Origin: a bacterium
GTDB taxonomy: Bacteria > Patescibacteriota > Minisyncoccia > Phycocordibacterales > Zambryskibacteraceae
Direction of reading: 5' to 3'
Length of the DNA stretch: 64,000 nucleotides
Assembly: GCA_030649135.1 (NCBI GenBank)
Contig: JAUSGI010000008.1
Coordinates: 128,001 to 192,000 of the forward strand
Shown: piece after piece, positions 7,904 through 61,737 of the stretch
Layout of the letters: each line of letters begins with the position of its first letter
Numbering within the stretch: position 1 is the stretch's first letter
The notes under the pieces: generated by a model
The model's database searches: none
Seen by the model: only the letters and a program-made list of their open reading frames with translations
Told to the model about the DNA's origin: nothing
Position numbers and translations under genes: made by a program

Positions 7904-7986
7904 GCTGGAGTGATGGAATGGCAGACATGCAGCACTCAAAATGCTGTGGGCGCAAGCCCGTGTGGGTTCAAGTCCCACCTCCAGCA
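7904..7986 (+). tRNA. tRNA-Leu (anticodon CAA)
   Basis: Hand-folded. Acceptor GCTGGAG/CTCCAGC, anticodon stem CAGCA/TGCTG, anticodon loop CTCAAAA, a long variable arm (TGGGCGCAAGCCCGT) and T-arm GTGGG-TTCAAGT-CCCAC. CCA is not encoded. Confidence 0.85.
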
Positions 7987-21117: not shown

Positions 21118-22008
21118 ATATTTCAACAGAGCCATTCTGATTGTCACTCCATATTTGGCTTGTTTGAAGTAAACTGCCTTGGGAGACTTATCAACCTCAA
21201 GGAGAATCTCGTCTACTCTTGGCAGTGGGTGCATAATAATCGACTTGGCTTTCATTCGAGCCACTAATTCAGCATCTATTCGGTAACACCCTTTGAATTT
21301 TTTATAATCCTTTTCACTCTTAAATCGCTCCTTTTGAATCCGCGTCTGGTACAGAACATCAACTTTGGGGATAATTGATTCCCAATCTTCAATTTCTTGA
21401 TATGGAATACCGTGTTTATTTAAATAAGCTTTAATATCTTCTCCCACTCGAAGAGCTTTGGGCGATACGAAAAATATTGTGATATTTTGGAACTTTCCCA
21501 ATAGATACGCCAGCGAGCGAATAGTCCGGCCATGCTTTAGGTCTCCGACCATGGCTATGCTAATGCCGTCAATTCTGCCGAGCTCTTTTTTAATCGTGTA
21601 AAGGTCCAGAAGTGCCTGCGTTGGATGTTGTCCAGTCCCATCACCCGCGTTAATTATAGGAACACGGGAAACTCGGGCGGCGCGTTCCGAAGCTCCATTT
21701 TCGTAATGACGAAGCACTATAACATCAGCATAATTACTGATGACTCTGACGGAGTCCTCGAGAGTCTCACCTTTCACGGCCGAAGAAAATTTATCGGCGT
21801 TGTCGGTGGTAATGACGCTGCCGCCCAGTCGCAACATGGCTGATTCAAAAGAAAACCGAGTTCTGGTACTTGGTTCGTAAAAGAGCGAGGCCATGATCTT
21901 GCCTCGTAAGGAATTCTCGGTTTTCTTTTCTAACCCATCCGCAATCGAGAAAATTTTATTAATGAACCTTTTATCAAACTGTTGAGATTTGACGATATGA
22001 TTCATCAA
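21106..22008 (-). CDS. pyrB: aspartate carbamoyltransferase catalytic subunit
   Basis: STRTR, HPTQ and HPLP motifs. 300 aa. Confidence 0.85.
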   Translation of the reverse strand: MMNHIVKSQQFDKRFINKIFSIADGLEKKTENSLRGKIMASLFYEPSTRTRFSFESAMLRLGGSVITTDNADKFSSAVKGETLEDSVRVISNYADVIVLRHYENGASERAARVSRVPIINAGDGTGQHPTQALLDLYTIKKELGRIDGISIAMVGDLKHGRTIRSLAYLLGKFQNITIFFVSPKALRVGEDIKAYLNKHGIPYQEIEDWESIIPKVDVLYQTRIQKERFKSEKDYKKFKGCYRIDAELVARMKAKSIIMHPLPRVDEILLEVDKSPKAVYFKQAKYGVTIRMALLKYLLT

Positions 22009-22041: not shown

Positions 22042-22112
22042 TGCGAGATGCGAGAATCGAACTCGCGCCCGATGCTTGGGAAGCACCAGTTCTGCCACTA
22101 AACTAATCTCGC
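22042..22112 (-). tRNA. tRNA-Gly (anticodon CCC)
   Basis: Hand-folded. Acceptor GCGAGAT/ATCTCGC, anticodon loop TTCCCAA and T-arm GCGAG-TTCGATT-CTCGC. Confidence 0.8.
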
Positions 22113-22113
22113 A

Positions 22114-22200
22114 TGGTGCCCGGGGTGGGCATCGAACCCACACGACCTTGCGGTCACGAAATTTTAAGTCTCGCGCGTATACCAATTCCGCCACCCGGGC
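22114..22200 (-). tRNA. tRNA-Leu (anticodon TAA), long variable arm, CCA encoded
   Basis: Hand-folded. Acceptor GCCCGGG/CCCGGGC, anticodon loop CTTAAAA, variable arm TGACCGCAAGGTCGTG and T-arm GTGGG-TTCGATG-CCCAC. Confidence 0.85.
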
Positions 22201-22275
22201 TGGAGGCGTAGGCGGGAATCGAACCCGCGCATATCGGTTTTGCAGACCGCCGCGTTTCCACTTCGCCACTACGCC
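22201..22275 (-). tRNA. tRNA-Cys (anticodon GCA)
   Basis: Hand-folded. Acceptor GGCGTAG/CTACGCC, anticodon stem CGGT/ACCG, anticodon loop CTGCAAA and T-arm GCGGG-TTCGATT-CCCGC. The 3' end abuts the tRNA-Leu 5' end with no spacer. Confidence 0.75.
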
Positions 22276-22392
22276 ATTGTCCAGCTAACTAACTTTTATA
22301 CATTATCATAATTGATAAATCATTGCTTTTTTGAAATACTGTACTCTTATACCCCGCTTCACCCCGCCATGGCGGGGCGAGACGGGGCAAGC

Positions 22393-22465
22393 GCGCCTAT
22401 AGCTCAGCTGGTAGAGCAGATCCCTCTTAAGGATAAGGTCGCAGGTTCGATCCCTGCTGGGCGCA
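22393..22465 (+). tRNA. tRNA-Lys (anticodon CTT)
   Basis: Hand-folded. Acceptor GCGCCTA/TGGGCGC, D-arm GCTC-AGCTGGTA-GAGC, anticodon loop CTCTTAA and T-arm GCAGG-TTCGATC-CCTGC. Confidence 0.8.
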
Positions 22466-22467
22466 CT

Positions 22468-22548
22468 GGGCGGGTGGTGAAATGGTAGACACGCCAGTTT
22501 TAGGAACTGGTGCCGCAAGGCATGGAGGTTCAAGTCCTCTCCCGCCCA
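22468..22548 (+). tRNA. tRNA-Leu (anticodon TAG), long variable arm
   Basis: Hand-folded. Acceptor GGGCGGG/CCCGCCC, anticodon stem CCAGT/ACTGG, anticodon loop TTTAGGA, variable arm TGCCGCAAGGCATG and T-arm GGAGG-TTCAAGT-CCTCT. Confidence 0.85.
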
Positions 22549-30019: not shown

Positions 30020-30646
30020 CTAATTATAATACATATACTTGCCTTTTGTCAAACGAGTTAGGAAACTCCGACGGTGGATAACGGTTGGGCCAAACTTTCG
30101 GATCGCTTTCCGATGCTGACTGGTGCCATAGCCCTTGTGTATATGAAAATTGAATTCTGGAAATTTTTTAGAGAGTCTGACCATTCTCTTGTCTCGTATT
30201 ACTTTTGCCATGATGCTCGCAAGCGAAATAATCGGAATCTTTTCATCCCCTTTTATAACCGTCAGTTGATGTCTAAACCGGTCCGGCGCTTTTATACCTC
30301 CGTCCAAAAATACTTGAGCATCCTCCGGTACGGAAAGAGAGGCGAGGCTTCTCTTAATACCGAGTCTGATGGCGTAGGTGATGCCCTTGCGGTCAATAAT
30401 CTTTTCCGACACAAGCGAAACCGCAAAGTCGAGCACACCCTTTTTACGAGCCTCGAGAGCCAAAGCAAACCACAGTTCCCTATCACCCGCGGAGAGTTTT
30501 TTGGAATCTTTGATGCTCTTGAAAAAGTTTTTACTTGCCCTACGAAGCTTAAGCGAAGTGGGGTTGGGAATCGCCACTGCTCCTACCGCCACCGGACCGG
30601 CCAAAGGCCCTCTACCCGCTTCATCAATACCTACGACATAACTCAT
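30020..30646 (-). CDS. rnhB: ribonuclease HII
   Basis: N-terminal MSYVVGIDEAGRGPLAGPV with the DEAGRG catalytic motif. Confidence 0.9.
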   Translation of the reverse strand: MSYVVGIDEAGRGPLAGPVAVGAVAIPNPTSLKLRRASKNFFKSIKDSKKLSAGDRELWFALALEARKKGVLDFAVSLVSEKIIDRKGITYAIRLGIKRSLASLSVPEDAQVFLDGGIKAPDRFRHQLTVIKGDEKIPIISLASIMAKVIRDKRMVRLSKKFPEFNFHIHKGYGTSQHRKAIRKFGPTVIHRRSFLTRLTKGKYMYYN

Positions 30647-30682
30647 GCGTTACCGAAGATTATACCTTATAATGACCTTCTG

Positions 30683-33600
30683 ATGAATAAGTTTGTCCAC
30701 CTACATACCCATTCGCATTACTCTCTACTCGAAGCTCTGCCAAAAGTCCCGGACCTCGTCAAGAAAGCCCGTCTCTCCGGTATGAACTCGCTTGCCTTGA
30801 CGGATTCCGGCAATTTGTACGGCGCTATAGAATTTTATAAAGAATGTAAGAAACAGGACATTAAACCGATAATCGGAGTCGACTTCTACGTCGCTTTGCG
30901 CACCAGAAACGATAAAGAAGCGCGTATAGACAACGAGCATGGCCGCCTGGTACTCCTTGCCGAGAATAATCTGGGATACCGAAACCTCCTCAAACTGGTG
31001 ACCGATTCCTTCTTGGAAGGCTTCTACTACAAACCACGCATCGACAAGGAGTTGATTGAGAAATACCGCGAGGGTCTCATCGCTATTCTACCGACATCCA
31101 CTTCGGCAGATGTAGAGGAGAAAGCAAAATATTATAAAAGTATCTTCGGCCCGGACAACTTTTTTCTGGAACTTACCAGCCATCCGGAGGTGAGAGGCCA
31201 CCAAGAAAAGATGCGAGAAAGAATCGCCTTCGCCCAAAAGGCGGGGATCTCTCTGGTTGCCGCCCATGATGTCTACTACCTGGAACCGGACGATAAGTCG
31301 GCGCGAGACACCTTGCTCTCCATCCAAGGTCATCTTAATCTAAGCGGAGATAGCGGAGTCTTCGGCAAGGATGTCGAGAATCTTTCTTTCATTAGTAGCG
31401 AGGAAGCCAGAGAATACTTCAAAGAAACACCGGATGCCATAGAGAACACGCAAAAAATCGCCAGGAGATGCAATATTGAACTTGAACTCGGCAAATGGGT
31501 CTTCCCCAATTATGTGGTCGAGAGTGGCAAGTCGTATGACGAAGAGCTACATGATGTGGTTTATGCCGGATTTAAAAAGAGGAACCTGCCCCAGAATGCC
31601 GAAACATTGGAGCGAGTAGCATATGAATTAAAAATTATTTGCGGTAAGGGTTATTCTCCATACTTCCTGGTTGCCGCCGACCTGCTGCGCTATGCGCATG
31701 AGCATGGCATTTTGACCAATACCCGTGGTTCGGCCGCGGGCTCTATGGTTACCTACCTTTCGGGCATCACCACCGTTGACCCTCTCAAATATGCCCTGCC
31801 CTTTGAACGCTTCCTTAACCCGGACCGCCCCTCACCGCCGGACATTGACCTTGATATCGCGGATGACAGACGGGATGAGGTCATAGAATATGCCCGTACA
31901 AAATATGGCAAAGACCATGTAGCCCAGATCGGCACCTTCGGCACCATGATGGCCCGCGGGGCGGTACGCGACGTCACCCGAGCACTCGACTTCTCGTATA
32001 CCTTGGGCGACAAAATAGCCAAACTGATTCCGCTCGGCGCTCAAGGATTCCCCATGACCCTCAACCGAGCTATGGCGGAAAATCCGGAACTTAAAAAACT
32101 CTATGAAGAAGACGGGGAAGTAAAACGAATTATCGACATGGCTCAAAAAATAGAGGGTAATGCGCGGCATATTAGTGTTCATGCCGCCGGTGTAGTAATC
32201 TCGCCGGAACCACTCGTCGACTACACTCCCCTTCAGTACGATACCAAGGGAGAAAAGAAAATTATTACCCAGTACGACATGTACTCCATCGAGGAAACCG
32301 GGCTCTTGAAGTTTGACTTCCTGGGTATCAGAAACCTCTCCATTATTGCCGAGACTCTCGTCCGTATCGAAAAGATTGAAGGTAAATCAATAAAGATAGC
32401 GGACATACCCATAGACAATCGTAAGACATTTGAAATGCTGACTCGTGGCGAAACGGAAGGCACATTCCAACTAAACGGCGACGGTATGACGCGAGCCCTG
32501 ATGGAACTGAAACCTAACTCTATTCACGATATTAACGTTATGGTTGCCCTCTATCGTCCGGGACCGATGGACAACATCAAGGAATATATCGCAAGAAAAC
32601 ACGGACAGAAACCGACGAGCTATATCCACCCCAAAATGAAGAATTTCCTGGACACTACTTATGGGGTACTGGTTTACCAAGACGACCTCATCATGACAGC
32701 CATTGAAGTGGCCGGCTATTCCTGGGGCGAAGTCGATAAATTCCGTAAAGCGGTAGGCAAGAAAATTCCGGAAGAGATGAGAAAACAACATATTATCTTC
32801 GTCGAGGGCTGCCAAAAGAATGGCGGCATGAATAAGGAGAAGGCTGAGACGCTTTGGAAACTTTTTGAACCATTTCAGGGTTACGGCTTCAATAAAGCTC
32901 ATGCGGCCAGTTATGGTCACATCGCCTACGTCACGGCTTATTTGAAAGCAAATTTTCCCGCTATCTATATGTCCGCCGTACTTACGGCAGAATCCGGTGA
33001 TGTGGAAAAAATAGGAGTTATGATAAAAGAGTGCAAGCGCATGGGTATAGAGGTTCTGCCCCCTTCTATAAACGAGAGCTTTTCCCAATTTACTGTTGTT
33101 AAAGACAATGTTCCCCTAGGAAAGACCTCGGGGTACCCCGAGGTCTTTCCTAGGGGATACAAAATCCGTTTTGGGTTGACTACAATCAAAAATTTCGGAG
33201 AAGGCATATCCAGTTCCATTACAGCTGAAAGAAAAGTGCATGGTAAGTTCAGAGATTTAGAGGATTTCCTTGACTGCATCCGGGATAAAAATTTGAATAA
33301 AAAATCTCTTGAATCACTGATAAAATGCGGTGCTCTTGATGACATCCCCTCGACAAGCTCGGGACAAGTCGGCGAACGAGGCGTACTACTCGCCAATATG
33401 GATAACTTACTTGAATATCATCGGGAAAGAATAAATGCGCCTCAAAACCAGGACTCGCTTTTCGGTCTCATGTCCGACACATCCACTCTGCCTGGTTTAC
33501 GCCTCGCGAATGCTCCCGCCGCTACGCAAAAGGAGAAACTGCTGTGGGAAAAAGAACTGCTCGGTCTCTATATCTCCGGACATCCGCTGGAAGCATACAA

Positions 33601-33901
33601 AGATAAGCTTCTGGCTCTCCAAGTCAATATCGAGAAGCTCCCAGGCCTACACGAAGGTGATACGGCGGTCATTGCCGGACTGGTCGAGGAAATCCGCGAC
33701 GTTCTTACCAAAGGAAATGAGCGTATGGTCTTCATGCGCTTGGCAGATTTGTCCGGCATTATCGAGGTGGCTATCTTTCCGAGTATACTCAACGAATTTC
33801 GTTCTTTCATCCAGCCGGAAGCATGTATAGCTATCAAGGGCAAAGTCTCGAAACGGAAAGGTGAGACCTCATTCATTGCCGAAAAGATTAAGGCCTTGTA
33901 G
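30683..33901 (+). CDS. dnaE: DNA polymerase III alpha subunit
   Basis: PHP domain HLHTHSHYSLLEA, palm and fingers, HhH (GLTTIKNFGEG) and an OB fold. The start is set at MNKFVHL because the track ORF 5' extension is antisense to rnhB. Confidence 0.93.
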   Translation: MNKFVHLHTHSHYSLLEALPKVPDLVKKARLSGMNSLALTDSGNLYGAIEFYKECKKQDIKPIIGVDFYVALRTRNDKEARIDNEHGRLVLLAENNLGYRNLLKLVTDSFLEGFYYKPRIDKELIEKYREGLIAILPTSTSADVEEKAKYYKSIFGPDNFFLELTSHPEVRGHQEKMRERIAFAQKAGISLVAAHDVYYLEPDDKSARDTLLSIQGHLNLSGDSGVFGKDVENLSFISSEEAREYFKETPDAIENTQKIARRCNIELELGKWVFPNYVVESGKSYDEELHDVVYAGFKKRNLPQNAETLERVAYELKIICGKGYSPYFLVAADLLRYAHEHGILTNTRGSAAGSMVTYLSGITTVDPLKYALPFERFLNPDRPSPPDIDLDIADDRRDEVIEYARTKYGKDHVAQIGTFGTMMARGAVRDVTRALDFSYTLGDKIAKLIPLGAQGFPMTLNRAMAENPELKKLYEEDGEVKRIIDMAQKIEGNARHISVHAAGVVISPEPLVDYTPLQYDTKGEKKIITQYDMYSIEETGLLKFDFLGIRNLSIIAETLVRIEKIEGKSIKIADIPIDNRKTFEMLTRGETEGTFQLNGDGMTRALMELKPNSIHDINVMVALYRPGPMDNIKEYIARKHGQKPTSYIHPKMKNFLDTTYGVLVYQDDLIMTAIEVAGYSWGEVDKFRKAVGKKIPEEMRKQHIIFVEGCQKNGGMNKEKAETLWKLFEPFQGYGFNKAHAASYGHIAYVTAYLKANFPAIYMSAVLTAESGDVEKIGVMIKECKRMGIEVLPPSINESFSQFTVVKDNVPLGKTSGYPEVFPRGYKIRFGLTTIKNFGEGISSSITAERKVHGKFRDLEDFLDCIRDKNLNKKSLESLIKCGALDDIPSTSSGQVGERGVLLANMDNLLEYHRERINAPQNQDSLFGLMSDTSTLPGLRLANAPAATQKEKLLWEKELLGLYISGHPLEAYKDKLLALQVNIEKLPGLHEGDTAVIAGLVEEIRDVLTKGNERMVFMRLADLSGIIEVAIFPSILNEFRSFIQPEACIAIKGKVSKRKGETSFIAEKIKAL
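33113..33156. repeat. 44 bp perfect palindrome inside the dnaE coding sequence
   Basis: CCCCTAGGAAAGACCTCGGGGT|ACCCCGAGGTCTTTCCTAGGGG, where the right arm is the exact reverse complement of the left. It encodes PLGKTSGYPEVFPRG. Confidence 0.9.
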
Positions 33902-48689: not shown

Positions 48690-48726
48690 GCGCCACGACC
48701 TCGGAGGTCGTGGCGCTCTTTTCTTT
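48690..48726 (+). terminator. rho-independent terminator
   Basis: GCGCCACGACCT-cgg-AGGTCGTGGCGC followed by TCTTTTCTTT. Confidence 0.8.
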
Positions 48727-50787: not shown

Positions 50788-52071
50788 TTATGGTTTTATT
50801 AGCGCTTCAATCTCATTATGGGCATGGTAGACTGCCTCGAGAGTGCGGGCACGGCCACTGGTTACGGATTCTATTGCGTTATGAAAGATTGTTTTGGTCA
50901 TCACGGTATCAGGGTCCAGCCAGCCCTTAGACTGAAGCGCCGCATCGTAAAAGACAGACAATGCCGTGTCAGCCGGTCTTACAGATAGGAGGTCGCGCCG
51001 TGCCGGTGGTAGAGAAAGAATCTCGGATAAAGCCCGCGCCACATCTTTTGACACCAATTTGGTGGCGAGGGCAAGTGCGGCGCCGGGATTTAGAGAACCG
51101 CGGGATATGGCCACCCCTCGCAGTCGCCCGAAGGTAACAGTCTTACCGGTGACTCTCGACTGGGGTACGGATGAGACGGCAAAGTTGAGAATGGGGTTTT
51201 TGTTCCTAAGCACGCGAAGTTCTGATGCAAAGCCCAGATAATAAGCGGAATCGCCACTTGTGAAGTGGGTCTGGGCATCAATGAGCGAACGATTCCAACT
51301 ATAGTAGACCCTCGTCGGGTTTGAGAATTGGGTGTAAAAACTTAGGGCCGCCTCACCCGGCGAAATTGTCAAACCAAAAGTTTCGGCGATTTGTGAGCGC
51401 AATTCTATTCCGGCCAAACTGGTAATAGGCGTGCCGGCCTGAAGTAGCAGTAGAGCGAGAATGTCTTTGGCATGAGGAATATTTCGCGCCTCCCCCAGAG
51501 CCATGACCGAAGAAATGAGATTACCCGCGGCATCCTTTTTAGATAGATTGGTAGCGGCCGGATATATTTCATCCCAATACACAATAGGTCTGGCTTGCCC
51601 CGCTGCCGTAAGCAAATCTCTATTATAGTAAAGCACCAAGGGGTCTAGAGAGAGAGGAAGAGCGTAGATACCACCCGGGTCAAGGAAGAGTTCCCCTTCT
51701 TCAATGAATACGCTCTTGAAATCTCGCTCATTCACATTGCTGTAAGAAATGAGCGCGAGCTTGGGCTTATTTTTCCAAAGTTTGTCTTGAGTGAGAATAA
51801 TCAGGTCAGGGCCAGTTCCCCGCGCCAACGCTTCGGTAAATTCCGCCTCTATTGTGTCAGCTGACTTTTCTTCATAACTTACGGAGAATGCCCGGTCTTC
51901 ACCAAGAAGGGATGGGGTAAGTAAAAGATTAAAGTCCTGTGAGGTAATATCTCCCCAGACGGTTAAGGCAACATTCTGGCCACCAGAACCGCGATACAAA
52001 GAGAAGGCCGCCACGCCGGCGACAATAGCAACCGCGAAAATCGCTAAGAGAATAATCTGAAACTTTGACAT
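50788..52071 (-). CDS. membrane-anchored extracellular solute-binding-protein-like protein (orphan)
   Basis: N-terminal TM anchor followed by a periplasmic-binding-protein-like fold. No permease or ATPase gene is adjacent. Confidence 0.5.
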   Translation of the reverse strand: MSKFQIILLAIFAVAIVAGVAAFSLYRGSGGQNVALTVWGDITSQDFNLLLTPSLLGEDRAFSVSYEEKSADTIEAEFTEALARGTGPDLIILTQDKLWKNKPKLALISYSNVNERDFKSVFIEEGELFLDPGGIYALPLSLDPLVLYYNRDLLTAAGQARPIVYWDEIYPAATNLSKKDAAGNLISSVMALGEARNIPHAKDILALLLLQAGTPITSLAGIELRSQIAETFGLTISPGEAALSFYTQFSNPTRVYYSWNRSLIDAQTHFTSGDSAYYLGFASELRVLRNKNPILNFAVSSVPQSRVTGKTVTFGRLRGVAISRGSLNPGAALALATKLVSKDVARALSEILSLPPARRDLLSVRPADTALSVFYDAALQSKGWLDPDTVMTKTIFHNAIESVTSGRARTLEAVYHAHNEIEALIKP

Positions 52072-52114
52072 ATGTTAATCCTACACTAAAACTAAAAGAA
52101 CTAATCCCCATTGC

Positions 52115-52135
52115 TGTCAAAGACCGTCTTTGACA
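52115..52135 (+). repeat. REP-A copy 1 (TGTCAAAGACCGTCTTTGACA)
   Basis: Exact palindrome located 10 nt upstream of the RAYT start. Confidence 0.85.
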
Positions 52136-52145
52136 TAATAGGTTC

Positions 52146-52793
52146 ATGGGTAATAGAGACTATAAAAAATTTGCCACTGGAACTATCTTTCATATATACA
52201 ATAGAGGCAATAACCGAGAAAAAATTTTCCATGATGAGCAGGACTATAAAGCGCTAATATTTAGAATTGGTCTGGCACTAGGATTCGAAGAAAAAGAACT
52301 GTCACATCAATTATGTCACCAACCATATTCAAGAATCAGGATTACAGGCACACATAAAGGAAAATTCAAGCTACACGCTTTTTGTCTTATGCCAAATCAT
52401 TTTCACTTACTTATCGAACAGTGTGAAGATGTGCCTATATCGAAAATTATCTCGAAAATATGTGCAAGTTATGCTAAATATGTAAATAAAAAATACAAAA
52501 GAGTCGGGCATGTATTTCAGGATAAATTTAAAGCAGTACTTATGGAATCAAATGAACAACTTATGTGGATTTGCACATATATACACATGAATGCAGTGAA
52601 GGACAGTATGGTCAAACATCCAGATGAATATGTATGGAGTAGCTACAATGACTATACAACTGACAGAAATCTGCCAATCATAAATACTGACTTTTTGATC
52701 TCACTATTTGGTGATAAAAATAGTTTCAAAAAAGAGACCCTCCGCCCTTACTCAGATAGCCTGTCAAAGACCGTCTTTGACATTAAGAGTTGA
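52146..52793 (+). CDS. REP-associated tyrosine transposase (RAYT; IS200/IS605 Y1 HUH family)
   Basis: HUH motif MPNHFHLLIE and catalytic Tyr region YVWSSY. The last 10 codons are encoded by REP-A copy 2. Confidence 0.85.
   Translation: MGNRDYKKFATGTIFHIYNRGNNREKIFHDEQDYKALIFRIGLALGFEEKELSHQLCHQPYSRIRITGTHKGKFKLHAFCLMPNHFHLLIEQCEDVPISKIISKICASYAKYVNKKYKRVGHVFQDKFKAVLMESNEQLMWICTYIHMNAVKDSMVKHPDEYVWSSYNDYTTDRNLPIINTDFLISLFGDKNSFKKETLRPYSDSLSKTVFDIKS
52762..52782 (+). repeat. REP-A copy 2
   Basis: Identical 21-mer, overlapping the RAYT 3' end. Confidence 0.85.
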
Positions 52794-52813
52794 AACATAT
52801 CGGTCTGGATTAT

Positions 52814-53590
52814 TTATTTCAAAACCACCATCAGGTGATCTGAGAAATCGATATAGCCACCCTTTTGATATTCTTTGATTTTCTTAAGGAACTCTTCAGC
52901 CTCTGTATCATTCGGAAAAGAATCAGTATTATGAATAAATCTATAGAAAATCTTGAGGTCAAAACGGCTATTAGTCGTAAGGATATCTCCAACAAACATT
53001 CTCATCCTTAATCTCTTAACCTCGACCTTAAACCCGAGTTTCTTATAGAAATCAGCGATGTATTCTGCATAATTAAATTCTGGGTAAACCTGTTGCAACA
53101 TTATCTTATAGTGATCGCTATCTTCAGGAAGAGTGAGAATAAGCAATTTGCCATCATTATTTAATAAGTCAGGAAGTTTAGAGAGTTGTGCATTATAATC
53201 TTTTTCATTGAGACCCCAGTAATAGTTTGTGTGGGATGTAAAGACAATATCGTATTTTTTATCAGTTTTAAAAGTAGCAAGACTCCCTGGAAAACATTCC
53301 CCAATGTTATTTTCCAGAGTTAAAAATGCTTTGGCTGATGATAAGGCATTTTGATTAGGTTCAAGTAAGTCACAAATGTAGTCTCCTTCAACACGGTCAA
53401 GAATCTGCTTTGTAGTGTGGCCTTCGCCGCAACCAATATCAAGAACGAGTTTATTGGGGGAATTTTGAGTATTTATCTCTTTTACAATTTCAGCTACAAT
53501 CCCAAACCAATCCTCAGCAAAACTACGAATGTAGATATTTTCGTATACATCTGAAAATTCTTTTTCTCCCCAGAAATGCCACTTTGCCAT
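52814..53590 (-). CDS. class I SAM-dependent methyltransferase
   Basis: Motif I VLDIGCGEGHTT. Lies between REP-A copies 2 and 3. Confidence 0.8.
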   Translation of the reverse strand: MAKWHFWGEKEFSDVYENIYIRSFAEDWFGIVAEIVKEINTQNSPNKLVLDIGCGEGHTTKQILDRVEGDYICDLLEPNQNALSSAKAFLTLENNIGECFPGSLATFKTDKKYDIVFTSHTNYYWGLNEKDYNAQLSKLPDLLNNDGKLLILTLPEDSDHYKIMLQQVYPEFNYAEYIADFYKKLGFKVEVKRLRMRMFVGDILTTNSRFDLKIFYRFIHNTDSFPNDTEAEEFLKKIKEYQKGGYIDFSDHLMVVLK

Positions 53591-53611
53591 AATATTTTTT
53601 ATTTCAGGATA

Positions 53612-53632
53612 ATGTCAAAGACGGTCTTTGAC
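53612..53632 (-). repeat. REP-A copy 3 (inverted orientation, TGTCAAAGACGGTCTTTGACA)
   Basis: Reverse complement of copies 1 and 2. Confidence 0.85.
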
Positions 53633-53678
53633 ATACACATACATTTGAGAATGGAGATTTTTTCACAAGCATAAATAA

Positions 53679-56123
53679 TCAAAAACAAATTAAGGAAGCT
53701 ATGCTATCCCCCTCTCTTAATTTCATAATCCTTACTCCCTGAGTCTGGCGACCCAACTCCGGAATCTCTTTGAGCCCAACCCGGACTACCTGACTCTTTT
53801 TGGAAATAGCTATGACTTCGTCTTCTTGGTCGGTCACCACTTGCGAGGCGATAACCTGACCAGTTTTCGGTGTCACTTTAGAAGTGAGAATACCGGAACC
53901 ACCCCTGCCTTGTACTTTGTATTCGGATAGTTCCGTGCGCTTACCGTAGCCATTGGCAGAAATGACCAAGAGATGACCCGCTTTCTCTTCTGATTTGATA
54001 TGGTGCGCGCCCACGACCAGGTCCCCTTTGCCGAGCTTAATCCCCCTCACTCCTCCCGCGCCACGGCCCATCTCACGAATGGCCGATTCCTTAAACCGGA
54101 TGGACTGGCCTTTTTTCGTCACAATGGACATGTCATCGTTCTTCTCGACCAATTCAACCGATATCAATCTGTCTCCCGGAGAAAGTTTGATGGCAATGAT
54201 GCCGGAAGCGCGCACGTCATGAAAACTTTTAGCCGAGACTTTCTTGGCGGTACCGTTTTCCGTAATCATAAATAGCGAACCACCGATATCCTTCTTGCCC
54301 TTGCCCATCGCCAGAATGGAAGTCACCTTCTCGTCATCAGAAAGTGAAATGAAATTCATCACCGACTTGCCGCGCGTAGCGCGCTTACCCTCCGGAATGT
54401 CATACATCTTGATTTGATAAGCCTTACCCTTGTCGGTAAAGAACAAGAGGTCGGCATGGGTGCTGGCAGTCAAAAAATTGGTGACAAAGTCCTCTTCTTT
54501 GGTATCCAGGTCTACCACTCCTACCCCGCCACGTTTCTGGCGTCTGTATTCATCCGGATTGGTGCGCTTGATGTATCCACCTGATGTTAGAACTAGCGTA
54601 TTCTCTTCCTCTGGCACCAAATCTTCGACAGAAAGAATTTTGACTCCCCCTTTGATTACTTTGGTGCGACGCTCGTCACCATACTTATCTTTAATATCTT
54701 GTAGTTCAGTCTTGACTACTTTTAAAATTTTAGCGTTCGAGGCCAATAATTCTTTCAGCTCTTTGATAAAAGCTTGGACTTCTTTAAGTTCATCCTCCAC
54801 TTTCTGGCGTTCCAGACCGGCCAGTTTCTGGAGCTTCATTTCGAGAATGGCATTGGCCTGCAATTCGGAAAGTTTAAATTCTTTTATCAAACCGGCTCGG
54901 GCGTCGTCAACGCTTGATGAGGCTCGAATGAGTTTGATAACTCGGTCAATGTTGTCGAGAGCAATCGTAAGACCGAGCAGAATGTGTTCGCGTTCCTCGG
55001 CTTTGGCCAAATCAAATGCTGTACGACGCTTGACCACTACCTCTCGATGTTTGAGAAACTCAATGAGCATGCTCTTGAGTGATAGAGTCTGAGGTACGCC
55101 ATCGACCAATGCCACGAGATTGAAGTGGAAAGTTTCCTCGAGTTGGGTATGTTTGTAGAGAGCATTTAAGATTTTCTGCGGTTGACTGCCATTTTTAAGA
55201 TCAATAACCACCCGAACGTCTTTAGTCGACTCATCACGCAAACCCTTCACCCCTTCAATCTTCTTCTCTCGCACTAAGTCCGCAATTTTAGGTATTAACC
55301 CCTCCGCTTTATTTACTCGGTATGGAATCGCGGTGATGATAATCTGATTACCGCCGCCCTTACCTTCCACAATCTCAGCCACACCACGGACCACCACTGG
55401 CCCTCGACCGGTAGCATAAGCATGGTGAATATCTTTTTCATTAAAAATAATACCGCCAGTGGGAAAGTCTGGGCCCTTTATAAACCCGAGTAAATCTTCC
55501 GTAGTCGCATCACGATTATCAGCTAGGTGGACCGTAGCATCAATAACTTCCGAAAGATTATGAGGTGGAATATTGGTAGCCATGCCCACGGCGATACCCA
55601 AAGTACCGTTGAGTAAAAGGTTAGGCGTTGCCGCCGGTAAAACTACCGGCTCTGACCTTGTACCATCGTAATTGGGTCTGAAGTCTACCGTATCTTTATC
55701 AATATCTTTAAGCATTTCACCTGCCAGACGTGACATCTTCGCCTCGGTGTAACGATAAGCAGCGGCACTATCTCCGTCTATTGAACCGAAATTTCCTTGT
55801 CCGATAACCAAGGGATAACGCATCGAGAAATCCTGTGTCATTTTGACCATGGCTTCGTAGACAGAGGAGTCGCCATGCGGGTGATATTTGCCGAGCACGT
55901 CTCCAACGATGGTGGCGGACTTCTTGGTCTTAGCGCCCGCGTTAAGACCAATCTCATTCATGGCATAGAGAATACGGCGGTGCACCGGCTTGAGGCCATC
56001 ACGCACATCAGGCAATGCGCGGTCGGTGATGACCGACATGGCATAGTCGATAAACGACTCCTTCATCTCGCTCGTAATCGGGCGAGAGATAACTCTGTCT
56101 CCGTCCTTATTCGCCATATACAT
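53679..56123 (-). CDS. gyrA: DNA gyrase subunit A
   Basis: [28 protein letters not shown] with the catalytic Tyr region and a C-terminal beta-pinwheel. Confidence 0.93.
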
Positions 56124-57147: not shown

Positions 57148-57322
57148 TGCTCCATTTTAGCATAAAACAGTGCTATTTGCCAGCGTTTTCCGCCTTGAAT
57201 TCCCTTCCCTTTCTTCTTGACAAAGAGTGTTATATATGATAGGATTCTAGAGGACCTTGGGAGCACCTGCCATACCGGCATGGTGCGCTCGTTAACCCAG
57301 TTCATTCACAAGGAGACAAGAG

Positions 57323-58459
57323 ATGACACGACGCATTGCTTTGTTCACGCTGGTCGCAATCCTCTGGATTGCTCAGACCAGCCTCGCGCAGGCACCCTAT
57401 CAGGTGAAGGAGGGAGACACCCTCTACGCCCTGAAGGGGATCTACTCGGCTAACCAACCCGAGTGGAAAGCGCTCACGATCGTGAACCCGCAGCTCGCGG
57501 AACCCGGCCGAGCCTTCACCGATACGCAGAAACGATTTATCGTCATCCTGCGCCTGGGTGAACGGCTCAAGGGCCTCGAAATGCTCGGCATAACCGCCCA
57601 GCCGATACTCGTTACCGGGTTCGTAGCGCCAGCGCCGACCACGAAAAACGTCGTCACAGACATCACTGCCAGTGCCGATAGCCACAACAGGTGGCTCATC
57701 GCGCTCATGGCAACAGTGTTGGCGCTCATCATTCCCTACCTGATCTTCCGGTATCTGCCGGAATCGCGTAGGCCGAACCTTCCGTTCCTCGGGAGGTATA
57801 ACCCGGCACTCACCACGAACCCTGTCACGGCGGCTCCCCCGATGGTCGCCGGAGGCATCGCCTCTGACAATCATGACGCTATCAGGCGCCAGTTCCGGGA
57901 ACAGGCGGCGCGGACGTACGCGTCGACGCACGGCGGTGTTATACCCCAGATGAGTGACATCCGCATCGTCGGCAACATCATCCATGGTACGCTACACGAC
58001 GTCTGGGAAACCTCAGACGCCAATGGCCGCTGGATTCCCCGCCGCTACAACGGCGAGCCAGGGTTCCAGGCGATGGTCTCGGTCAACAACGCCGAACCAG
58101 CGCTCCAGACATGGTCACAACCATGTGGCAACGATCTGCGTATCGGGCGACGCTACCGTGGCGGGCGCTTCATATCCCGCCCTGCGGCCGGGACGATTCC
58201 GGCTCAGGCTCCAGCCACTCCAGTGGCTCCGCTTCGTCCGCACATCGCGGTGGCGCAGGAGCCGGACGGGCAGGTGGTCACCATCACGGTCGGCGGTATG
58301 CGTTACACCACTCATGGCAATGACATCCACGTCAACGTGGATCAGGGGGGCGCTGTGACGGATGTCACAGCGAACGGCCAGATCCGCGTGGCGAAGGTGC
58401 CGAAGCGGACGAAACCACGTGTGGTACGACCGGCGGCGACAGGTACACGCGACAAGTAG
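57323..58459 (+). CDS. secreted and membrane-anchored LysM-domain protein (about 62 % GC)
   Basis: Signal peptide, LysM motif (YQVKEGDTLYALKGIY), one TM helix and a Pro/Ala-rich region. RBS AAGGAGA upstream. Confidence 0.6.
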   Translation: MTRRIALFTLVAILWIAQTSLAQAPYQVKEGDTLYALKGIYSANQPEWKALTIVNPQLAEPGRAFTDTQKRFIVILRLGERLKGLEMLGITAQPILVTGFVAPAPTTKNVVTDITASADSHNRWLIALMATVLALIIPYLIFRYLPESRRPNLPFLGRYNPALTTNPVTAAPPMVAGGIASDNHDAIRRQFREQAARTYASTHGGVIPQMSDIRIVGNIIHGTLHDVWETSDANGRWIPRRYNGEPGFQAMVSVNNAEPALQTWSQPCGNDLRIGRRYRGGRFISRPAAGTIPAQAPATPVAPLRPHIAVAQEPDGQVVTITVGGMRYTTHGNDIHVNVDQGGAVTDVTANGQIRVAKVPKRTKPRVVRPAATGTRDK

Positions 58460-58514
58460 TACAAACGCGGCCAGACGTTAATCTGGCAAAGTCCGGGGAG
58501 ACTTAACTCCCCAC

Positions 58515-58542
58515 GGGCAGGTCATCGTGACCTGCCCTTTTT
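58515..58542 (+). terminator. rho-independent terminator, preceded by a second hairpin GGGGAG-actta-ACTCCCC
   Basis: GGGCAGGTCA-tcg-TGACCTGCCC followed by TTTTT. Confidence 0.75.
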
Positions 58543-59257: not shown

Positions 59258-60436
59258 TTGATTTTGATATTATGGACCCCGTTCCTTATTAACCCCCGCT
59301 TTCGTTACCCCCCGCGCTTCGGCAAACACTCTATAAAGCGCGAGGACCGGAAACGGCCCATCAATTTGACTACTAATACTGCAGAAGTTGACGCATTTCT
59401 AACAAGCATCCCCAATCCCCCTTCCATCGATGACCTCGTGGAAGGTCCTGTCATCAGTATTGATAAAGGCGCGGTCTATGTCGACCTGCCGCCTTTCGGC
59501 ACCGGTATCATCTACGGTCGCGAGTTTATAAACGCCCGAGACATTATCAAAAAGATTAACGTCTCCGACATTGTCGCCGGCAAAGTGGTCGGCATCGGTG
59601 GTAAAGAAGGTTATATCGAAATTTCCCTGAAGGAGGCGCGTCAGGCCCTAATCTGGAGCGAGGCTGAGGAAGCTATTCGCGAGAAACGCATATACGAGCT
59701 TCCTATCACAGATGCCAACAAGGGTGGTCTCATTATTAACTGGCAAGGCCTCTCCGGTTTCCTGCCTGCTTCCCAACTTAAACCGGAACATTACCCGCGC
59801 ATCTCCGACGGAGACAAAGACAAAATTCTTGATGAATTGAAGAAACTGGTTGGGGAAAAACTCTCGGTCACCATTATTGGCGCCAGTCCCAAAGAAGGCA
59901 AACTTATTTTCTCGGAGAAAAGTCCCGAGACCAAAGATAAAGAAAATATTGTGGCCCGTTACACTTTGGGCGACGAAATTGTGGGCGAAGTCACCGGTCT
60001 CGTCGACTTCGGTATTTTCATTAAACTGGAAGAAGGGCTGGAAGGGCTGGTGCACATCTCGGAAATTGATTGGGGTCTTGTAGAAAATCCCAAAACCATG
60101 TTCAGGATAGGTGAAAAAGTACGTGTGAAGGTTATCGAGATTAAGGATGACAAAATTTCTCTCTCTATTAAAGCCTTGAAAGAAAACCCTTGGCGAGAAG
60201 CGGAAAAGAAATACAAGAAAGACGCCATTGTAGACGGTATCATTATTAAATTCAACAAGTACGGAGCGCTTGCTTCAATTGAGGAGGGTGTGGCGGGCCT
60301 GGTGCATATCTCCGAATTTGGTTCGGAAGAAAAACTGCGCGAGAAACTCGAAATGGGCAAGGTCTACACTTTCAAAATCACCCTCTTCGACCCCAAAGAG
60401 CAAAAGATGGCACTCTCGTTCATCGACAAGAAATAA
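59258..60436 (+). CDS. rpsA: 30S ribosomal protein S1 (four S1 repeats)
   Basis: Repeated S1 motifs (GKVVGIGGKEGYIEIS, GLVHISEIDW, GLVHISEFG). The true start is uncertain and may be a non-ATG codon downstream. Confidence 0.8.
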   Translation: MILILWTPFLINPRFRYPPRFGKHSIKREDRKRPINLTTNTAEVDAFLTSIPNPPSIDDLVEGPVISIDKGAVYVDLPPFGTGIIYGREFINARDIIKKINVSDIVAGKVVGIGGKEGYIEISLKEARQALIWSEAEEAIREKRIYELPITDANKGGLIINWQGLSGFLPASQLKPEHYPRISDGDKDKILDELKKLVGEKLSVTIIGASPKEGKLIFSEKSPETKDKENIVARYTLGDEIVGEVTGLVDFGIFIKLEEGLEGLVHISEIDWGLVENPKTMFRIGEKVRVKVIEIKDDKISLSIKALKENPWREAEKKYKKDAIVDGIIIKFNKYGALASIEEGVAGLVHISEFGSEEKLREKLEMGKVYTFKITLFDPKEQKMALSFIDKK

Positions 60437-60446
60437 TCCATCCCTT

Positions 60447-61163
60447 TGTCAAACACTGGGTGTTAGACAACTATAGGATCTTCAAATAATCTAGCTCTTC
60501 TTCTAGAAGTTTTGCTGGACTTGTCCTAGTAAACTCTTGGTATTTGTCTGGGCCTTTGAATTGACCTAGAACGATTTCTGATAAAAGCAGACTTCCCCAT
60601 CGATTTTCTTTTATAAAATCTTGATAGCTTGACCAAGGATATTGGTCTTCTTTCTTAAACCACTTCCCAATCTCTCTCGGGTTTCTATGAATATAGCTAG
60701 ACAGATATAAAAGCTGATGATCACCTTCTATATGAACCGCACGATAAGGCCCTTGAAAAACATGTCCAGATTTATCATATCTGGTATTGTAATATTTGGC
60801 ATAAGCATTAAGCACTCTCTGCATATAAGCTGCTATGCCTTCTTCTTCAACTTCTTTGACCAATAAGTGGAAATGGTTTGGCATGATACGGAAAGAAACA
60901 AGCTCAACTGTACGCTTTTTAACAATCTCCTCTGTATTATCTAACACCCGGTGTTTGACGAAATCCTTTACTGACCTACCAACCTGTGGAAAAGTTACTT
61001 CTGATTGGAAGTAAAGAATGAGGAAAAGAAATCTGTTGTAGTCTCCTGTATCATGAAAAATAACTTGTTTGTGTACACCCCTATTACACAAATGATAATA
61101 CTCGTTTGGAGACAACCGTGTTCTTCTCATATATTCATTATGTCAAATACCCGGTGTTTGACA
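60447..61163. mobile_element. second REP–RAYT module (REP-B, RAYT, REP-B)
   Basis: Imperfect palindromes TGTCAAACACTGGGTGTTAGACA (60447-60469) and TGTCAAATACCCGGTGTTTGACA (61141-61163) abut the stop and start of the transposase gene. Confidence 0.7.
60471..61130 (-). CDS. REP-associated tyrosine transposase (RAYT; IS200/IS605 Y1 HUH family), second copy
   Basis: HUH motif MPNHFHLLVKE and YPWSSY. A partial REP-B (AACACCCGGTGTTTGAC) lies inside the gene at about 60943-60959. Confidence 0.85.
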   Translation of the reverse strand: MRRTRLSPNEYYHLCNRGVHKQVIFHDTGDYNRFLFLILYFQSEVTFPQVGRSVKDFVKHRVLDNTEEIVKKRTVELVSFRIMPNHFHLLVKEVEEEGIAAYMQRVLNAYAKYYNTRYDKSGHVFQGPYRAVHIEGDHQLLYLSSYIHRNPREIGKWFKKEDQYPWSSYQDFIKENRWGSLLLSEIVLGQFKGPDKYQEFTRTSPAKLLEEELDYLKIL

Positions 61164-61182
61164 AACTTATATATCCTTAATA

Positions 61183-61737
61183 TTACTTGACCGGATGGTC
61201 AAGTTGATAAATCTGGGTATCGTAGCCTCTGGTTTCTTCGTCATTTCTGGAAAGTCCCAGAGATTCAAGTTCTTTGAATAATTCTTCCCTGACTTCCTCT
61301 GCGTCGATGTCTTCTTCAGTCAGCTTTTCAAGCTCGATAAATGTCCCAAGTTTTTCCACTTCATCCAGACAAATCTCATACGGTCCGAGTTTGCCCTTCC
61401 GACGCATTTTCTTTACCTCGACTACCGGATACCACCCCAGTAGCTCAAGCATATGGTGGACTTGTTTCGGATCTGCCACTTCTGTCTCGCACTCAATATT
61501 GTCGCTCTCGTTGGAACGCTGCTGTTTGAGGGTAAGCTCAGCAGAATCCTTCAAGTAGCGGATGCGAATAACAATATCTCCCTCCTGTGCCGATTGGAAT
61601 TCATTCCTCGAACCCTTGAGAGAATAGACAACATCATGCTGGCTTATCGGTTCTGAAAGAACGCAGCCTTTCTCTTTGAGCTTTTGCTCAATTTCTTCCA
61701 GATTCTTCGCTTTCAGCTTTACTTCTATTTCTCTCAT
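61183..61737 (-). CDS. CYTH-domain protein (class IV adenylate cyclase / triphosphate-tunnel metalloenzyme-like)
   Basis: N-terminal EIEVKLKAK plus conserved acidic tunnel residues. Confidence 0.75.
   Translation of the reverse strand: MREIEVKLKAKNLEEIEQKLKEKGCVLSEPISQHDVVYSLKGSRNEFQSAQEGDIVIRIRYLKDSAELTLKQQRSNESDNIECETEVADPKQVHHMLELLGWYPVVEVKKMRRKGKLGPYEICLDEVEKLGTFIELEKLTEEDIDAEEVREELFKELESLGLSRNDEETRGYDTQIYQLDHPVK

Follow-up and report, generated by a model that had tools for sequence, protein, structure and literature searches.

What does a small gene of the transposase type do that sits between conserved neighbours in a patescibacterial genome and that is bordered, and even traversed, by copies of one and the same palindrome? 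This question is raised by positions 60447-61163 of a 64,000-nt stretch of contig JAUSGI010000008.1 (assembly GCA_030649135.1, positions 128,001 to 192,000 of the forward strand), which was analysed as a whole and is called the window in the following. The gene, here named RAYT-B with reference to the REP-associated tyrosine transposases (RAYTs) that accompany repetitive extragenic palindromic (REP) sequences, encodes an enzyme of the Y1/HUH type. From our analysis, the region is probably a self-contained, REPtron-like unit. It represents a branch of the class-2 Y1/HUH enzymes (relatives of RAYT and TnpA_REP) that is found almost entirely in Patescibacteria, with the palindromes as predicted cognate sites. 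Related loci and contigs are cited by our own labels, e.g., L003, where they have to be told apart.

RAYT-B is an open reading frame (ORF) of 219 amino acids on the minus strand (60471..61130). Its palindrome, termed REP-B, is present in three copies, all assigned to the minus strand. The upstream copy (UP; 61141..61163) reads TGTCAAATACCCGGTGTTTGACA, or TGTCAAACACCGGGTATTTGACA on the gene strand, begins 10 nt beyond the ATG and contains one C.A mismatch. The downstream copy (DOWN; 60447..60469) reads TGTCAAACACTGGGTGTTAGACA, or TGTCTAACACCCAGTGTTTGACA on the gene strand, contains one T.T mismatch and lies 1 nt from the TAG stop codon, between the convergent stops of the S1 gene and RAYT-B. 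The internal copy (IN; 60938..60960; TATCTAACACCCGGTGTTTGACG, gene strand CGTCAAACACCGGGTGTTAGATA) is in frame and covers codons 57-64. Its core, GTC AAA CAC CGG GTG TTA GAT, is translated as V58-K-H-R-V-L-D64. This copy is eroded in the present genome. The initial annotation of this locus had named a second Y1 gene with the motifs MPNHFHLLV and YPWSSY and palindromes abutting its stop and start, all of which is confirmed here. It had also noted a partial copy inside the coding sequence. An internal copy does exist, but it is nearly full length (19-20 of 23 positions are identical to the flanking copies) and represents a conserved in-frame feature rather than an accident. What had been overlooked is the main structure of the locus, namely an UP copy lying over the promoter and an IN copy conserved in frame.

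The pattern TGTCAAA-N9-TTTGACA, with at most two mismatches, matches three times in the 64-kb window versus 0.30 expected, and the exact pattern TGTCAAA-N3-25-TTTGACA matches four times versus 0.00 expected. These counts exclude chance as the origin of the palindromes. Folded as DNA, the three B copies are imperfect hairpins of -4.4, -2.6 and -7.0 kcal/mol (z = -1.6, -0.5 and -3.0). In the L006 ortholog, three perfect copies are present.

Hairpins were sought around the gene in 83 homologous loci of 33-74% identity, almost all of them labelled Patescibacteria. A gene-specific palindrome in two or more copies is present in 58 of the 83 loci, and UP and DOWN copies occur together in 50. Within the 58 loci with a repeated palindrome, the UP site is filled in 56 and the DOWN site in 52. 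In 28 loci, a further copy lies within the gene between +150 and +207 nt, with +171 as the commonest position, and in four there is a second internal site at about +450 to +490. We have high confidence in this anatomy and in its conservation throughout the family.

The layout is shared, and the palindromes themselves are unrelated between lineages, as exemplified by the arms TGTCCAACAC, TGTTAAACAC, GAGCAACAT, TTACAAGGTT and CTTCCGGGAG. Copies belonging to the same gene are 94% identical, versus 53% for copies at the same position in other genes. Within a close clade the values are 95% and 80%, respectively, and for 56 of 66 copies the nearest neighbour is found in the same gene. In an alignment of 25 upstream copies, 97.2% of the cells pair, and 7 of 10 base pairs exhibit double compensatory changes. 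The covariation score of 0.685 compares to 0.214 in shuffles, none of 500 of which reach 0.685, and it drops to 0.12 or less when the partners are slid.

Where several paralogs reside in one genome, each has its private palindrome, and the distant co-resident paralogs in L013, L023 and L076 carry unrelated ones. The same holds for the window, where each of the two Y1 genes has a palindrome of its own. A genome-wide homogenisation by a shared host factor had come to mind from the motif TGTCAAA in both window palindromes and from TGGTCAA in both Y1 genes of L003; the unrelated palindromes of the distant paralogs rule it out. L003 also presents a mixed situation. Its RAYT-B ortholog (9892-10646) carries UP and IN copies starting with TGGTCAAAGC, while the DOWN copy, CTGTCAAACACCCGGTGTTTGACAG, is of the REP-B type of the window. 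The mixture may be a snapshot of a type switch. The second Y1 gene of L003, 3.9 kb away (6023-6706), has three copies starting with TGGTCAACAC.

The protein belongs to the Pfam family Y1_Tnp (E=2.4e-11), with the HUH motif H86-F87-H88, the catalytic-tyrosine motif Y146-I-H-R-N-P and the tail W166-S-S-Y. In an alignment of 51 A- and B-type sequences, N85-H-F-H88, F125-Q126, Y146, H148, N150, W166 and S168 are invariant, and P151 is present in 42 of the 51. The AlphaFold (AF2) model (pLDDT 89, pTM 0.87) has its best PDB match in 4er8_A, the E. coli TnpA_REP with REP hairpin (E=9e-7, TM 0.68), followed by the TnpA proteins of ISDra2 and IS608. Against the curated NCBIfam models, the protein scores below the cut-off in both cases, with 37.1 bits for the equivalog REP_Tyr_transpos (NF047646; cut-off 80) and 16.5 bits for IS200 (NF033573; cut-off 55). 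Where TnpA_Y1 proteins of subclass 2.1 have an HTH-like domain (Bac_DnaA_C, HTH_23 or HTH_28), i.e., at the C-terminus, RAYT-B has no Pfam helix-turn-helix match at E <=0.01; the model has four short helices in residues 169-218.

Database searches returned 1,129 homologous proteins for the B query and 4,948 for the A query, with members of about 205-230 amino acids. Both families are thus very large and, wherever the sources give names, patescibacterial. The homologues are named "transposase", "putative transposase", "REP element-mobilizing transposase RayT" or "hypothetical protein", the RayT label being given to some A-type relatives. At least 539 loci of the family were counted in species-representative genomes. 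Carriage by phages or plasmids was considered and rejected, as the family has two weak viral matches, seven distant plasmid matches and no match in a PHROG search. The exact RAYT-B protein is present in a database of 5.8 billion proteins. The exact RAYT-A protein is not among the matches from this database, the best one being 84% identical; it may carry another annotated start or a pseudogene label in its source record.

How old is the unit at this site? L003, L004 (same contig as L006), L007 and L008 each have a RAYT-B ortholog in the pth-S1 interval, and in these relatives the extended gene order matches that of the window (signal peptidase, HisS-like, lactamase_B, gyrA, SBP, pilins). Compared to the window proteins, identities amount to 66-74% for RAYT-B, 64-76% for pth, 71-73% for the signal peptidase, 70-78% for the HisS-like protein, 68-79% for SBP, 87-90% for gyrA and 89-92% for S1. 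Shared synteny with a divergence like that of the neighbours argues for long residence and against a recent insertion, and with high confidence we conclude that RAYT-B has long resided between pth and rpsA and was inherited vertically. To speak of a gene inserted between rpsA and the CYTH/pth genes, as the initial annotation did, is therefore misleading. Inspection of the interval in relatives, as had been suggested there, reveals a shared Y1 gene and a variable CYTH gene. The latter (61183-61737, between RAYT-B and pth) is missing in the four relatives named above; in L003 and L004, the Y1 gene comes immediately after pth. It is thus the CYTH gene and not the Y1 gene that represents the lineage-specific addition. 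In L086, both the Y1 gene and the palindrome are absent between S1 and pth.

Paralogs within one metagenome-assembled genome (MAG) are at most 72% identical (the most similar pair is L019/L023), which argues against recent transposition. The G+C content (GC) of the Y1 gene is below that of its flanks in 77 of the 78 loci with enough flank, by 7.3 points on average, and tracks the host GC over a range of 26-56%. Recent insertion had been considered because of this dip, and is ruled out since low GC is general and yet follows the host. The dip could stem from the amino-acid composition, or else represent a foreign signature of long standing.

The UP copy overlaps the -35 box and the spacer of the predicted promoter of RAYT-B. 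This sigma-70-type promoter (61137..61164, minus strand; TTGTCA, 16 nt, CATAAT, with TG before the -10 box) agrees with the consensus at 10 of 12 positions and is the best promoter-like match within 60300-61300. With only 6 nt from the end of its -10 box to the ATG, the mRNA should be leaderless or nearly so. Among the relatives, a -10 box with at least 5 of 6 consensus positions ends 4-14 nt before the ATG, with a mode of 6, in 50 of the 83 loci, versus 5.9% at random positions. With a copy of its palindrome in the promoter, RAYT-B would most likely be autoregulated, a suggestion that we make with low to moderate confidence.

In its symmetric form, the IN copy consists of seven codons, each being the reverse complement of its mirror partner, e.g., GTC CAA CAC CGA GTG TTG GAC (VQHRVLD) or GTT AAA CAC TCG GTG TTT AAC (VKHSVFN). 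Among 120 homologs, the heptapeptide follows V-K/Q-H/S-x-V/A-F/L-D, with H and V/M, S and A, Q and L, and K and F as mirror partners. At the centre stands either R (CGA) or S (TCG), the one being the flipped form of the other. In cases where perfect symmetry would make an in-frame stop codon (TAG in L002, TAA in L049/L077), a single mismatch is retained at the internal site; the upstream copy of L002 is perfect despite its mismatched internal counterpart. According to the model, residues 58-64 span the end of helix 50-60 and the next loop, N-terminal to the HUH strand. At the same position, the second Y1 gene of the window, RAYT-A, has a segment of similar length without a palindrome, and the internal site is therefore not a simple insertion.

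RAYT-A (52146..52793, plus strand, 215 amino acids) is the first RAYT of the initial annotation, and its existence is confirmed. Aligned with each other, the two proteins are 30% identical, and the pairing of each gene with its own palindrome stands. The palindrome of RAYT-A, REP-A, has the form TGTCAAAGAC(C/G)GTCTTTGACA with copies at 52115, 52762 and 53613. The first copy (52115..52135; TGTCAAAGACCGTCTTTGACA) is followed by a CATAAT that overlaps its last two bases, and the ATG comes 6 nt after CATAAT and 10 nt after the palindrome. The second copy (52762..52782) lies within the last codons of RAYT-A, the 3' end of which runs through this palindrome (...LSKTVFDIKS, then stop). The third copy (53613..53633), with the centre base flipped to G, brackets together with the second one an ORF resembling SAM-dependent methyltransferases (52814..53590, minus strand, 258 amino acids; Pfam Methyltransf_12/25/23). 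All REP-A copies are perfect and fold as DNA with -7.2 to -8.4 kcal/mol (z about -6). The common TGTCAAA...TTTGACA termini of the A and B palindromes, which the initial annotation had pointed out, are real, though only weakly unlikely to arise by chance (about 0.03, a rough estimate from the column frequencies of alignment A3).

The block 52115-53633 has a GC of 0.32-0.38 versus 0.44-0.55 in its flanks. In L003, L004 and L007, which are the closest relatives, the block is cleanly missing between gyrA and SBP. RAYT-A orthologs of 78-79% identity occur in the same SBP-gyrA interval of genomes in which gyrA, S1 and SBP are 70%, 74% and 43% identical to those of the window. This distribution points to horizontal gain at a recurrent site or to repeated loss. 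As a second unit with its own palindrome, RAYT-A was more probably acquired horizontally.

The SBP gene beside the A block starts with ATGTCAAAG (MSK..; 52063-52071), a 9-nt sequence with which the extended REP-A arm ATGTCAAAGAC (52114-52124) also begins. In relatives, the SBP gene starts with ATGTCCAAG or ATGTCAAAG. This identity could be a coincidence or a clue to a target preference. The methyltransferase beside RAYT-A in the window has no homology to the one in the same place in L086, and the idea of a specific type of cargo between the gene and nearby extra copies was rejected, as the cargo is heterogeneous.

Are the palindromes confined to the surroundings of their genes? In the window they are: it contains three A copies and three B copies, and no solo copy of either type elsewhere. 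Solo copies of both types, away from the gene, occur in relatives. In 800 kb of flanks of these relatives, 14 cognate solo copies were found (11 of the 58 loci, about 1 per 57 kb), versus 0.088 per non-cognate type. The exact REP-A 21-mer is present in at least 120 stretches of metagenome contigs, the flanks of which are all different. The figures that follow for REP-A refer to the matches listed. Of the 120 stretches, 108 have no Y1 gene, the contigs are Parcubacteria-like (65-72% nucleotide identity to window genes), and long contigs contain one REP-A stretch each. In 76 of 122 non-redundant copies (62%), the palindrome lies in frame within a long ORF, where 71 of the 76 read x-SKTVFD-x and five read CQR[PR]SLT; the third frame has TGA. 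Going by recognised motifs, the host genes presumably encode leucyl-tRNA synthetase (LeuRS), proteins like threonyl-tRNA synthetase (ThrRS) and isoleucyl- or valyl-tRNA synthetase (IleRS/ValRS), RNase H, NAD-dependent DNA ligase and a reverse-transcriptase-like protein. We are highly confident that A-type palindromes are dispersed. An earlier conclusion of ours, "not dispersed at all", had covered the window and the ±10-kb flanks of the 83 loci, and was withdrawn after the metagenome stretches and the cognate enrichment had been found.

Orthologous positions in housekeeping genes may be occupied by different palindrome types. One linker of DNA ligase contains GTCAAACACCCAGTGTTTGAC in L217, which is of the window's REP-B type and reads VKHPVFD. 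In other contigs it contains the L007 type (L129), the L002/L007 type (L130) or the L025 type (L119). Each of these linker palindromes is within two mismatches of a known private type of RAYT-B; the linkers of L110 and L209 contain nothing palindromic. In the ThrRS slot, located before the LxxxGIR of the anticodon domain, we find ATGTCAAAGACCGTCTTTGACATG in L100 (MSKTVFDM), AAAGCCAAAGAGGTTTTTGATTTG in L165 (KAKEVFDL) and TACGCAAAAAATGTTTTTGAGAAA in the window (YAKNVFEK). The LeuRS slot follows APEHP[LIF] and carries REP-A in L164 and L182 and another palindrome type in L101 (MSKGILDI). It is non-palindromic in L167, with the same length, and in L199, L215 and L074, which are one residue shorter each. 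The exact identity of 21 nt in unrelated genes calls for a templated process, and the equal length with and without palindrome argues against plain insertion.

Some related palindromes occur as doublets, 4-33 nt apart and often of two types (L099, L128, L134, L145, L152, L162, L169, L176, L178 and L214). Neighbours of REP-A are, e.g., TGTTAAACACCGAGTGTTTAACA in L152 and TGTCAAGGTTCAACCTTGACA in L102. The doublets recall BIME or REPIN pairs, and some are in frame within ORFs. As the solo palindromes end in TTGACA, a role as portable -35 promoters was considered and discarded, for a -10 box is not enriched at 16-18 nt.

From a biological point of view, the palindromes would be the cognate hairpins or binding sites of the RAYT-B enzyme; that the enzyme itself acts on them we assume with moderate confidence. 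By cutting hairpins on single-stranded DNA and transferring strands between them, the Y1 enzyme might then bring about a hairpin exchange or a short-patch conversion, which would lead to concerted evolution of the copies that belong to one gene. Our confidence in this exchange mechanism is low to moderate. The surviving slots would be biased toward places that tolerate the heptapeptide. As a tentative generalisation, the Y1/HUH enzymes of Patescibacteria might each keep a small family of perfect 21-23-nt palindromes, overwritten length-neutrally and in a tolerated reading frame into fixed slots (the own gene and essential genes, e.g., those for DNA ligase, LeuRS, ThrRS and RNase H) and kept identical by enzyme-catalysed hairpin exchange. 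If so, the enzyme and its recognition site would jointly dictate seven-residue stretches of housekeeping proteins, which would change in concert between lineages.

Several points weigh against this interpretation. Binding and cutting of the palindromes by the protein is something we infer, and the three B copies are eroded, so that here the B system might no longer be active. Solo copies of REP-B or REP-A elsewhere in the 64-kb window were not found. The palindrome sets were chosen as palindromic and repeated, which makes the covariation and the within-gene identity partly circular; the conserved positions of the copies are free of this circularity. The per-genome copy number is an extrapolation from gene flanks and from the metagenome stretches listed (at least 120). 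Known RAYTs and IS200/IS605 transposases read their hairpins in a strand-specific manner via a 5' tetranucleotide, a bulge or a loop (PMC3479197, PMC8266576). Here, the palindrome centres are direct about as often as inverted, and symmetric palindromes with random centres would also fit a dimeric operator on double-stranded DNA. Finally, solo copies replace the native sequence length-neutrally, with no gap in ThrRS and a difference of at most one residue in LeuRS, which is not predicted by the known peel-and-paste insertion.

The operator idea leads to the first alternative, in which the palindromes are purely regulatory sites on double-stranded DNA, bound by a dimer of the encoded protein or by another factor without cleavage or mobility, and the solo copies form a regulon. 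It agrees with the position of the UP copy, which in most loci overlaps the -35 box and the spacer, with the symmetric palindromes, the random orientation of their centres and the absence of a wobble bias in the mismatches, and also with the UP-IN spacing of about 205 bp, which would be a plausible looping distance. A regulon, however, does not account for the 62% of REP-A copies, among the matches listed, that are located within the CDS of unrelated housekeeping genes. Nor are the intergenic copies placed as in promoters, with a -10 box at 16-18 nt on 3 of 90 sides versus 1.8% in the control. The catalytic HUH and Tyr residues, needless for a pure repressor, are invariant, and the exact 21-nt identity across unrelated genes requires templated copying. 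We consider operators of this kind unlikely.

The canonical RAYT-REP system, in which REP-B would be a high-copy extragenic repeat mobilised by a gene recently inserted beside rpsA, appears slightly less plausible still. A RAYT-REP system had been proposed by the initial annotation, and part of this stands: the Y1/HUH fold is closest to the E. coli TnpA_REP, the Y-x3-NP motif is typical of class 2 (PMC6006769), private cognate palindromes flank the gene, and some A-type relatives are even named after RayT. The canonical features fail, however. The REP_Tyr_transpos score of 37 bits stays below the cut-off of 80. RAYTs need a 5' GT[AG]G foot for binding and cleavage, and their cognate palindromes usually number more than 100 per genome, mainly in extragenic positions. 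Here, none of the palindrome copies in the window has a GT[AG]G foot, and in the relatives this motif occurs within 8 nt of the palindrome feet in 8 of 290 cases versus about 14 (13.6) by chance. Zero solo copies in 64 kb and about 1 per 57 kb in relatives do not add up to hundreds per genome, most REP-A copies among the matches listed are inside ORFs rather than extragenic, and a gene that is syntenic in four genomes is no recent insertion.

An active minimal insertion sequence (IS) of the IS200 type, about 720 bp long with a hairpin at each end and moving as a unit, is improbable. In size and layout the unit does recall IS200, the ends of which are perfect palindromes too (PMC8266576), the GC of the Y1 gene lies below its flanks in 77 of 78 loci, and the A block is missing in the closest relatives. 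Against this, the protein has Y-x3-NP rather than the Y-x3-Q of class 1.1 (16.5 bits versus a cut-off of 55), near-identical copies are lacking, with same-MAG paralogs at 72% or less, and B is syntenic across genomes with neighbour-like divergence. Moreover, the dispersed form consists of solo palindromes without the gene, and plasmids or viral contigs rarely carry members of the family.

RNA hairpins that stabilise or terminate the mRNA at its 3' end, together with an internal attenuator, can be dismissed as very improbable, and so can the chance terminator and promoter hairpin which the initial annotation had named as its own refutation. The DOWN copy does lie between two convergent stop codons and REPs elsewhere act in mRNA (PMC3733652), but the UP copy is upstream of the predicted -10 box and hence outside the transcript of its gene, yet its identity with IN and DOWN is maintained. 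None of the copies is followed by a T-run or falls on a terminator-like site, the mismatches show no preference for G.T, an Rfam search gave only tRNAs, which also rules out an RNA family, and chance is excluded by the pattern counts and the covariation.

Around the unit formed by RAYT-B and its palindromes, with the S1/rpsA-like gene, the CYTH gene and pth as neighbours, a few other features of the window deserve mention. A third Y1 gene was not found in the window. A 46-nt perfect palindrome (TCCCCTAGGAAAGACCTCGGGGT / ACCCCGAGGTCTTTCCTAGGGGA) at 33112-33157 lies in frame in a 1275-residue ORF (30074-33901), where it encodes VPLGKTSGYPEVFPRGY; it is unlike REP-A and REP-B. Its core, GACCTCGG, is shared with a 27-nt perfect palindrome at 48690-48716 (GCGCCACGACCTC-G-GAGGTCGTGGCGC), which is located within a minus-strand ORF of 115 amino acids and of doubtful reality. 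A GC-rich island at 57250-58500 (0.58-0.66 versus a window mean of 0.47) covers the ORF 57323-58459 (378 amino acids, weak LysM-like match) and may be foreign DNA. Just after it, at 58515-58537, follows the perfect 23-nt palindrome GGGCAGGTCATCGTGACCTGCCC. The perfect palindromes at 3905, 7735, 45714, 48690 and 58515 were considered as solo REPs and rejected for their unrelated sequence; those at 3905 (topoisomerase-like) and 7735 (ParB-like) are read as native protein sequence. The window has eight tRNA genes, including those at 7904, 13780 and 15124, and a group of five at 22042-22548 that occupies both strands. Right beside this group, the palindrome pattern has a weak match (21972-21994), which is probably due to chance.

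How does the unit compare to known systems? With the E. coli TnpA_REP/REPtron (PDB 4er8; PMC3333891, PMC3479197, PMC8266576) it shares the Y1/HUH fold, the Y-x3-NP motif, a single gene bordered by its own palindromes, the housekeeping-like vertical inheritance and the pairing of the gene with its own palindrome type. It differs in its near-perfect palindromes of 21-23 nt, which have neither a bulge nor a 5' GTAG. It also differs in its low copy number, with one copy in the promoter, one in frame in the gene, and solo copies that are mostly intragenic. Measured against RAYTs in general, the HUH plus Y-x3-NP fold, the cognate palindromes flanking the gene and the low-copy vertical inheritance are present, whereas a score above the NCBIfam cut-off, the GT[AG]G foot and a high-copy, mainly extragenic dispersal are not.

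By motif inspection, RAYT-B resembles TnpA_Y1 subclass 2.1 (Bertels Group 1, "TIRYT"; PMC6006769, PMC3733652), to which NH[YF]H, FQ in place of WQ/WE, Y[IV]H.NP and the "SS" tail point. Members of this subclass were reported to be without REP-like sequences or to have GGGGWSAS terminal inverted repeats, and their median length is 238 amino acids (PMC6006769). In contrast, private palindromes are found here, RAYT-B has 219 amino acids, and no GGGG[AT][CG]A[CG] repeat occurs within 60200-61400 or 51900-53900. Three distant plasmid-borne relatives from cultured bacteria share YPWSSY, as seen in those from Pseudomonas and Skermanella, or related motifs, and have no flanking palindromes.

In TnpA_Y1 subclass 2.4 (Bertels Group 4; PMC6006769), cognate palindromes are likewise found inside the transposase gene with the frame unbroken. 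There, however, the insertions add length, lie between the HuH and Tyr motifs and consist of GTAG or "double-foot" REPs, while the main internal copy described here is N-terminal to HUH at a fixed position. IS200 (class 1.1) is similar in its unit of about 700 bp with only a Y1 gene between perfect palindromes; it differs by Y-x3-Q, multiple identical copies and IS behaviour, none of which is seen here. Rickettsia palindromic elements (RPEs) and in-ORF REPs (PMC3733652) also place in-frame palindromes in functional genes, with DNA ligase and aminoacyl-tRNA synthetases as targets. In our case, the palindrome comprises only 21-23 nt (7 codons) and appears to replace native sequence without a change in length, and orthologous slots vary between genomes in step with the known palindrome types of Y1 genes.

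In-frame REPs are thus already known from tnpA_REP genes of subclass 2.4 (PMC6006769), and REPs or RPEs in ORFs have been described as well (PMC3733652). The combination found here was not described in the literature covered by a limited search, which is absence of evidence only. It appears to be new in that a lineage almost confined to Patescibacteria has perfect 21-23-nt palindromes of which one copy overlaps the promoter and another keeps a fixed in-frame place in the enzyme's own gene, with further copies in housekeeping genes at slots that do not change in length. The spread of REPs and the persistence of domesticated RAYT-type genes are open questions (PMC8266576, PMC5581495), and the present system offers a stripped-down case for both, with one small gene, a handful of perfect palindromes per genome, and thousands of natural variants. 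It hints at a templated, length-neutral copying beyond peel-and-paste transposition. In gene-dense genomes, such repeats survive inside essential genes, which affects annotation as well as the alignment-based phylogeny of aminoacyl-tRNA synthetases and DNA ligase. As the mirror-codon heptapeptide records the palindrome in the protein itself, the co-evolution of enzyme and site becomes directly testable.

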